NCBI RefSeq assembly: GCF_054482595.1
Contig: NZ_CM137008.1
Length of the DNA stretch: 64,000 nucleotides
Strand: one strand, 5' to 3'
The notes beneath the pieces were generated by a model that had not been told where the DNA came from, searched no databases, and was given only the letters and a program-made list of their open reading frames with translations. This document shows positions 29,406-57,718 of this stretch, one piece after another (position 1 is the stretch's first letter; the number at the start of each line of letters is the position of its first letter). The position numbers were made by a program, and so were the translations under genes.

Positions 29406-30071
29406 TTAACTCGCCTGCAAAGCGTTGATTTCGGATTTATCTGCCAGTCTTTTCAACAGCATATTGAGTAATACGCCATACATTGGCAGGAAGAAAACGA
29501 TACTGATTAACACTTTGAAACAGTAATCGACCAGCGCGATTTCCATCCAGTGTTCAGCCATAAAGGCATCCGGGCTACGCCAGAAGGCAATGAAGAAAAA
29601 GGCCAGCGTGTCGCTGACGTTACCGAACAGTGTGGACGCTGTCGGTGCCAGCCACCAGCGGCGACTCTGACGCAGGCGGTTAAAAACGTGCACGTCGAGG
29701 ATCTGTCCCAGCGCGTAGGCCATGAAACTGGCGGTGGCGATACGGGCGACAAACAGGTTGAAGTGGGCGAGTGCGCCGAATCCCTGCCAGGAACCCATAT
29801 AGAATAGCGACGAGATGACGTAGGAGATCAGCAACGCCGGGATCATCACCGCAAAGATGATACGACGGGCCAGCGGTGCGCCAAAAATACGTACGGTCAG
29901 GTCGGTAGCGAGAAAGATAAACGGAAAGCTAAACGCGCCCCAGGTGGTATGGAAACCAAAAATGGAGACGGGAAGCTGAACCAGATAGTTACTGGAGGTG
30001 ATCACCAGCAGATGAAATAAAGATAACCAGAACAATGCTTTATAGCGTTGAGTTTGCGAGAAAACGTTCAT
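29406..30071 (-). CDS. yhhQ: Queuosine-precursor (preQ0/preQ1) transporter YhhQ (COG1738)
   Basis: 221-aa polytopic membrane protein; synteny with tusA and dcrB. Confidence 0.9.
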   Translation of the reverse strand: MNVFSQTQRYKALFWLSLFHLLVITSSNYLVQLPVSIFGFHTTWGAFSFPFIFLATDLTVRIFGAPLARRIIFAVMIPALLISYVISSLFYMGSWQGFGALAHFNLFVARIATASFMAYALGQILDVHVFNRLRQSRRWWLAPTASTLFGNVSDTLAFFFIAFWRSPDAFMAEHWMEIALVDYCFKVLISIVFFLPMYGVLLNMLLKRLADKSEINALQAS

Positions 30072-30075
30072 ATTG

Positions 30076-30113
30076 TACCTTTTTGATTAACCATTGGGGT
30101 GAGGGAACCCAAT
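30076..30113 (-). promoter_or_regulatory. Candidate preQ1-I riboswitch aptamer in the yhhQ 5' leader
   Basis: The minus-strand leader reads UUGGG-UUCCCUCAC-CCCAA-UGGUUAAUCAAAAAGG then 6 nt then AUG: a 5-bp stem, a loop beginning UUC, and an A-rich tail ending in the Shine-Dalgarno, as in class-I preQ1 aptamers. Confidence 0.55.
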
Positions 30114-30291
30114 ACGTACGACACGTCTGTTACCTTAACATAATAACGTGCTTACCCTTTTTTCGAGCCGCCGCATGATACTGCTTTACGTTGACAATGC
30201 AATGGTTAATTTTCACGCAATCGTTAACCTGGTTTGCTTACGGACTCACAGGGCGTAAACTAGCGCCGTTTTTTTATGTGATGAGAAGAAA

Positions 30292-57506: not shown

Positions 57507-57598
57507 GCGATCAGGAAGACCCTCGCGGAGAACCTGAAAGCACGACATTGCTCACATTGCTTCCAGTATTACTTAGCCAGCCGGGTGCTGGCTTTTTT
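57507..57598 (+). ncRNA. ryhB: Iron-starvation small RNA RyhB
   Basis: Sequence GCGATCAGGAAGACCCTCGCGGAGAACCTGAAAGCACGACATTGCTCACATTGCTTCCAGTATTACTTAGCCAGCCGGGTGCTGGCTTTTTTTTT matches the RyhB sequence as I recall it, including its terminator. Confidence 0.95.
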
Positions 57599-57718
57599 TT
57601 TGATCTTTCGTTCTCAATTTATCCTCGGGAAGTGCTTGTGTTCGTTATGCGCACTCCAGTAGGAACCACGTCCGCTTTGCGCTAAGGTGTAAATAACCAC
57701 CTTAAAAAGGACGAAATC

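Follow-up and report, generated by a model that had tools for sequence, protein, structure and literature searches.

The yhhQ leader of Escherichia coli: very probably the known type III preQ1-I riboswitch, a translational OFF switch for YhhQ

Does the gene yhhQ of Escherichia coli carry, just ahead of its start codon, an RNA that senses preQ1 and, if so, how could a dedicated covariance model fail to see it? The locus lies in a stretch of 64,000 nucleotides that was analysed as a whole (hereafter the window), and a sequence-only reading of it had proposed a preQ1-I riboswitch that controls the importer gene. We hold with high confidence that the element is the E. coli type III preQ1-I riboswitch, acting as a translational OFF switch for YhhQ. 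This riboswitch is already known and there is nothing new in the window element itself.

Identity and parts of the yhhQ leader element

The minus strand of the window from 30113 down to 30078 reads AUUGGGUUCCCUCACCCCAAUGGUUAAUCAAAAAGG (36 nt, numbered 1-36 in that direction; Table 1). Every letter matches the 'WT Eco riboswitch 36-mer' in Table S1 of Schroeder, Kiliushik, Jenkins & Wedekind 2023 (J Biol Chem 299:105208; PMC10622847), the source of the published Eco riboswitch data used here. The linker of that study (GGUUAAUC) and its residue numbers U7, C15, C16 and A33 also agree with the window sequence, and its construct begins at the A that is window position 30113. Compared with Eco type III (PDB 8FZA), the window element has the same 36 nt, the same downstream gene and the same organism, with no sequence difference. 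The assignment to the class I preQ1 aptamers, made from the letters alone, is thus borne out by this identity.

The stem had been described as UUGGG/CCCAA, and these strands (30112-30108 and 30098-30094, minus strand) do pair. Its length, however, is 6 bp rather than 5, since A30113-U30093 extends it, and a possible U-G pair would give 7. The resulting AUUGGG/CCCAAU has the loop-proximal G-C pairs that are typical of P1 (~4-6 bp) in this class. The other elements of the proposed layout can all be read in the sequence: a loop that starts with UUC (UUCCCUC, then AC), the tail UGGUUAAUCAAAAAGG at 30093-30078 of the minus strand, and the GG of the Shine-Dalgarno (SD), separated by UACAAU (6 nt) from the yhhQ AUG at 30071-30069. 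Within the window sequence C10 C11 U12 are complementary to A34 G35 G36. In the 64 kb the 15-nt core GGGTTCCCTCACCCC is present a single time, against 0.02 occurrences expected even when 2 mismatches are allowed. Folding of 60 nt gives a minimum free energy (MFE) of -11.4 kcal/mol with z = -0.32, a hairpin no stabler than shuffled sequence; such single-sequence folding predicts P1, the program is unable to predict a pseudoknot and the z-score is uninformative.

Table 1. Features of the yhhQ leader and gene in the window (nt, numbering of the 36-mer)
Feature	Coordinates	Strand	Basis or remark
Complete type III preQ1-I riboswitch, aptamer and expression platform	30078..30113	-	sequence read; identity to published 36-mer
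P1 5' strand AUUGGG, nt 1-6	30108..30113	-	pairs with 30093-30098
Pyrimidine-rich loop UUCCCUCAC, nt 7-15	30099..30107	-	roles from crystal structure and mutants, PMC10622847
Anti-Shine-Dalgarno C10 C11 U12 in loop	30104-30102	-	roles from PMC10622847
U7, U8, A14 and ligand-specificity base C15 in loop	30100 (A14), 30099 (C15)	-	PMC10622847
P1 3' strand CCCAAU, nt 16-21	30093..30098	-	sequence read and P1 pair counts
Variable L3 linker GGUUAAUC, nt 22-29	30085..30092	-	same linker named in PMC10622847
A-rich tail and Shine-Dalgarno AAAAAGG, nt 30-36	30078..30084	-	conservation and crystal structure
Shine-Dalgarno sequence A33 A34 G35 G36	30081-30078	-	
P2 pseudoknot pairs U12-A34, C11-G35, C10-G36			crystal structure, PMC10622847
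yhhQ CDS, 221 aa, regulated gene	29406..30071	-	ORF, NCBIfam, RefSeq annotation
Putative yhhQ promoter	30175..30202	-	-35 TTGCAT 30202-30197, 16-nt spacer, -10 TATCAT 30180-30175

The downstream reading frame is the preQ0/preQ1 importer gene, as had been claimed: its product belongs to the NCBIfam equivalog NF008406, '7-cyano-7-deazaguanine/7-aminomethyl-7-deazaguanine transporter' (393 bits against a cut-off of 252, E 3.4e-118). The gene order is yhhS, dcrB, yhhQ (minus strand), tusA (plus strand, divergent from yhhQ) and zntA. A terminator-like hairpin, GGCGTAAACTAGCGCC followed by GTTTTTTTAT, lies on the tusA strand at 30252-30277, its end 15 nt short of the tusA start codon (30292). Six Escherichia sequences have it unchanged, and it may serve as a leader hairpin or attenuator, or else mark the 3' end of an element located upstream.

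Published work has demonstrated binding, structure and reporter repression, either for the very same sequence or for near variants of it. The WT Eco 36-mer binds preQ1 with a KD of 57.9 nM and 1:1 stoichiometry (N = 0.9), and a 2.3 Å cocrystal structure (PDB 8FZA) was obtained with a 30-mer variant having a shortened linker (PMC10622847). In that structure the loop and the SD form the Watson-Crick pairs of P2, the first SD adenine, A33, contacts preQ1 and the SD is fully buried, so the pairing by which the proposed pseudoknot was to hide the SD has been seen directly (PMC10622847). A GFPuv reporter in E. coli delta-queC showed 6.1-fold repression with an EC50 of 291 nM; the mutants U7C, C15U, C16U and A33C lose repression, C15U moving the EC50 311-fold and C16U abolishing switching (PMC10622847). 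The reporter differs from the native leader in its C-G P1 closing pair, its AAGGAGG SD, its spacer and its location on a plasmid (PMC10622847).

Type III is a subgroup of McCown et al. 2014 (Chem Biol 21:880), which, as cited through PMC10622847 and PMC11625349, comprised 293 sequences in 2014, nearly all from Pseudomonadota, and is stated to control yhhQ. With the type II riboswitches (Thermoanaerobacter tengcongensis and the Bacillus subtilis queC leader, which form the core of Rfam family RF00522) it has in common the H-type pseudoknot, a ~5-bp P1 closed by G-C pairs, a loop that starts UUC, an A-rich L3 tail, an 'AC' ahead of the P1 3' strand whose C is the specificity base, and one ligand bound in the 'alpha' mode. 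The type III loop, however, is shorter, all-pyrimidine and without purine-mediated contacts, and a variable linker stands ahead of the A-tract. Moreover, in contrast to type II, type III buries all four SD nucleotides by canonical pairing, touches the ligand with the first SD adenine, discriminates much more strongly against preQ0 and scores below RF00522 detection. The preQ1-II (RF01054) and preQ1-III (RF02680) classes recognise the same ligand, and class II likewise occludes the SD fully, but they adopt larger folds of another kind (HLout pseudoknots), whereas the window element is a 36-nt H-type pseudoknot.

Conservation of the leader and covariation in P1

Within the species the element is nearly universal: among 5426 complete E. 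coli genomes, all but one (5425) have a match to the 60 nt around it (30066-30125), with an identity of 99% or more in 4873, and a 501-nt query around the site also matches 5425 of the 5426. For a wider comparison, yhhQ loci were gathered by protein similarity, with the RNA motif playing no part in their choice. One protein search returned only homologues at least 87% identical, and the informative distant loci came from a search of representatives. The resulting 84 type III leaders consist of a near set, from 80 species-representative Enterobacteriaceae genomes, and four distant loci, and the arrangement with the SD before yhhQ is the same in all of them.

All 80 enterobacterial leaders have GGGUUCCCU(C/A)ACCCC, then a linker, then the tail, which is AAAAAGG in 79 and AAAAAAGG in the remaining one. 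Mean pairwise identity among them is 99.7% in the 15-nt core and 100% in the AAAAAGG tail, compared with 34.5% in the 20 nt upstream of the core and 62.8% at the third codon positions of the first 20 yhhQ codons. Across all 84 leaders the loop is invariant save for nt 13 (C/A/U), and A14 and C15, the 'AC' motif (alignment columns 16-17), never vary. The linker is 4-9 nt long and takes many different sequences among relatives; the A-tract is conserved. The four distant leaders, from YhhQ proteins 53-63% identical, retain UUCCCUNAC and AAAA(A)GG, and their P1 arms differ yet are self-complementary (UGGG/CCCA, GAGG/CCUC, CGGCGG/CCGCCG and GAGGG/CCCUC).

Pairing in P1 was counted on 46 distinct sequences (alignment A3). 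The inner four pairs are formed in all 46 and the outer two are variable; the two closing G-C pairs are invariant and the next two show compensatory replacements (UA to AU or GC, and GC to AU or CG). In total, 11 cells are changed on both sides, and the covariation score is 0.123 against 0.027 for shuffled alignments, with none of 500 shuffles reaching the observed value. Sliding the helix by +3 gives a similar score (0.130), but this is not a competing helix because only 40.9% of its cells are paired. Only P1 was counted in this way, since the variable linker length causes the MAFFT alignments A2 and A3 to misplace the 3' tail; P2 was judged by direct reading. Both strands of P2 (CCU/AGG) are invariant in every leader collected, so covariation speaks neither for nor against the pseudoknot, and P2 rests on the crystal structure. 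The rarity of the core, the invariance of core and tail beside an upstream region that diverges, and the compensatory changes in P1 together indicate that the element is more than a chance resemblance. Its identity, position and conservation and the covariation of P1 are direct results of the present analysis.

Not every COG1738 gene has this element: the type III motif is absent upstream of the more distant, metagenomic YhhQ homologues (L089-L094, 51% identity or less), and there is no Rfam riboswitch match upstream of them either. Several of these genes directly follow another gene in an operon-like manner.

The RF00522 covariance model and type III sequences

The sequence-only reading had put forward a scan with the Rfam preQ1-I model, RF00522, as a check, and had named the lack of a significant hit as a refutation. 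The scan (Rfam 15) gave no match in the 64-kb window at the gathering threshold, nor in slices of 371 and 66 nt at E<=10, and preQ1-II (RF01054) and preQ1-III (RF02680) had no matches in the same scans. Such a refutation is nevertheless invalid, because type III sequences escape RF00522. The model also failed to detect any of the seven other type III leaders submitted to it. As positive controls we have used IMG/VR viral contigs with a type I/II-like preQ1-I pattern: one of these (L106, 5548-5592, minus strand) scored 41.2 bits, above the gathering score of 39 that this 45-position model sets as a high threshold, and four further motif-like viral sites (L100, L101, L107 and L114) fell below it. 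In the sub-threshold viral sites, too, the P1 strands are complementary over 5 bp, the loop opens with UUC and the tail is rich in A. Finally, the RF00522 consensus has a 12-nt loop and the tail AUAAAAAACUAAGG, as compared with the 9-nt loop and inserted linker of type III. Considering that other type III leaders are missed too, that the positive control barely clears the threshold and that the consensus does not fit, the negative result is a false negative, a limitation of the model and not evidence against the RNA. The threshold belongs to a detection tool and is not a biological definition of the class.

Only one sequence in the window passes an Rfam gathering threshold, the small RNA RyhB at 57536-57600 on the plus strand (RF00057, 83.1 bits, E 3.6e-14).

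That genome annotations often omit this element had also been anticipated, and the two RefSeq records inspected indeed have no riboswitch feature between tusA and yhhQ. The blindness of RF00522 fits this lack. Absence of a type III preQ1-I riboswitch must therefore not be concluded from a negative covariance-model scan.

Mechanism, alternatives and native context

Drawing on the published structure and reporter, we propose the following scheme. In the absence of ligand the 6-bp P1 hairpin would form and leave the A-rich 3' tail and the AAGG SD free, so that ribosomes could start at the AUG 6 nt downstream. As intracellular preQ1 rises, it would bind between P1 and the loop, where C15, U7 and A33, the first adenine of the SD, would recognise it. 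Adenines of the tail would dock in the P1 minor groove and C10, C11 and U12 would pair with G36, G35 and A34, closing the H-type pseudoknot. With all four SD nucleotides buried, less YhhQ would be made, a negative feedback on precursor salvage.

The promoter is probably TTGCAT/TATCAT, which would place the transcription start near 30168 and give a leader of ~97 nt. A consensus sigma-70 scan of the intergenic region called no promoter; it missed this candidate because the -35 hexamer matches at only 3/6 positions. The hexamers and their spacing are kept in Escherichia, Klebsiella and a distant locus (L084), and the spacer sequence differs. Upstream of the putative promoter, AGGTTAACGATTGCGT at 30214-30229 (minus strand) resembles ACGCAAACGTTTGCGT, which we take to be the PurR operator consensus. 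Closer versions of this operator-like sequence, AACGTTTGCG, are present in Klebsiella and L084. YhhQ has been noted as a reported member of the PurR regulon (Zallot et al. 2017, PMC5372724).

Between the aptamer and the start codon no terminator-like site is found on the minus strand, which fits translational rather than transcriptional control. It is conceivable, though unlikely, that repression works mainly through mRNA-level effects (Rho-dependent termination, or decay after a block in translation), with a contribution from the Escherichia leader and with SD occlusion not the main route. In Enterobacter and Klebsiella the aptamer starts ~13-17 nt past the -10 element, and Escherichia has ~55 extra nt between the promoter-like element and the aptamer that are lacking there; moreover, in the MFE fold the surroundings of the SD and AUG pair with an upstream GUAC/CGUGU. 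This alternative fold is, however, no better than shuffles (z = -0.32, as above), and no part of the intergenic region varies more within Escherichia than the extra segment. The aptamer with its SD was by itself sufficient for 6-fold repression in a heterologous transcript, and the crystal structure has the SD fully buried (PMC10622847), both of which favour occlusion of the SD. The same Escherichia-specific segment includes AAAAAAGGG at 30155-30163 (minus strand), ~50 nt upstream of the aptamer; it resembles the AAAAAGG tail, perhaps by chance.

It is very unlikely that the riboswitch is real but that what it senses physiologically is preQ0, or both precursors, rather than preQ1. Characterisation of YhhQ showed a transporter of preQ0 that accepts preQ1 as well (PMC5372724), a reported preference with which such a signal would agree, and the discussion of PMC10622847 relates that preQ0 binding had been suggested by in-line probing done earlier on a type III representative. 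Surface plasmon resonance (SPR) on the Eco aptamer nevertheless gave ~130-fold tighter binding for preQ1 than for preQ0, with a 20-fold slower off-rate. Furthermore, E. coli has QueF and by this established pathway imported preQ0 becomes preQ1. That the element is an ordinary 5'-UTR hairpin beside the ribosome-binding site, devoid of ligand sensing and like a preQ1 aptamer by coincidence, is hardly credible: it would agree with the missing Rfam match and with a fold no stabler than shuffled sequence, but the controls account for the former, the identical RNA binds preQ1 at 58 nM and was crystallised with it (PMC10622847), and loop bases outside the Watson-Crick pairing of P1 are invariant in 84 leaders while the neighbouring sequence diverges, an invariance that a plain hairpin would not require.

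As for the preQ1-responsive OFF switch in its native setting, we infer that the chromosomal leader behaves like the reporter construct. In the literature we found no paper that measures native chromosomal yhhQ expression against preQ1, and a paper on the transcriptome and proteome of a tgt mutant yielded nothing on native yhhQ regulation. There is a small chance that native regulation differs from that of the minimal reporter, in view of the weak native SD (AAGG with a 6-nt spacer), the ~55-nt Escherichia leader extension, the reported PurR control and an insert in L3 of relatives in Klebsiella and Raoultella.

The long-linker relatives (L076, L077, L080 and L136-L138) belong to Enterobacter sp. 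10-1, Klebsiella and Raoultella, and in them 45 or 71 nt, as against the usual 4-9, separate the hairpin of the aptamer from the AAAAAGG tail with its SD. The insert folds as a hairpin whose base brings both ends together (-12.0 and -22.7 kcal/mol; z = -1.45 and -2.2), and the 71-nt form holds a second UCCCUCAC copy of the anti-SD loop. The core of one Klebsiella leader (L136) is GGGUUCCCUCACCCC. No description of a long-linker type III form was found in the literature covered, which did not include the subgroup-defining McCown et al. 2014. If they still switch, the long-linker forms would make up a variant of type III with a structure of its own.

For annotation, the value of the locus is that an element present in essentially every E. 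coli genome is yet invisible to RF00522, which could be remedied by extending the Rfam seed with type III sequences or by building a separate model. For the biology of the organism, it would be a feedback loop in which preQ1 shuts off translation of its own importer, by a mechanism that has been solved at atomic resolution.
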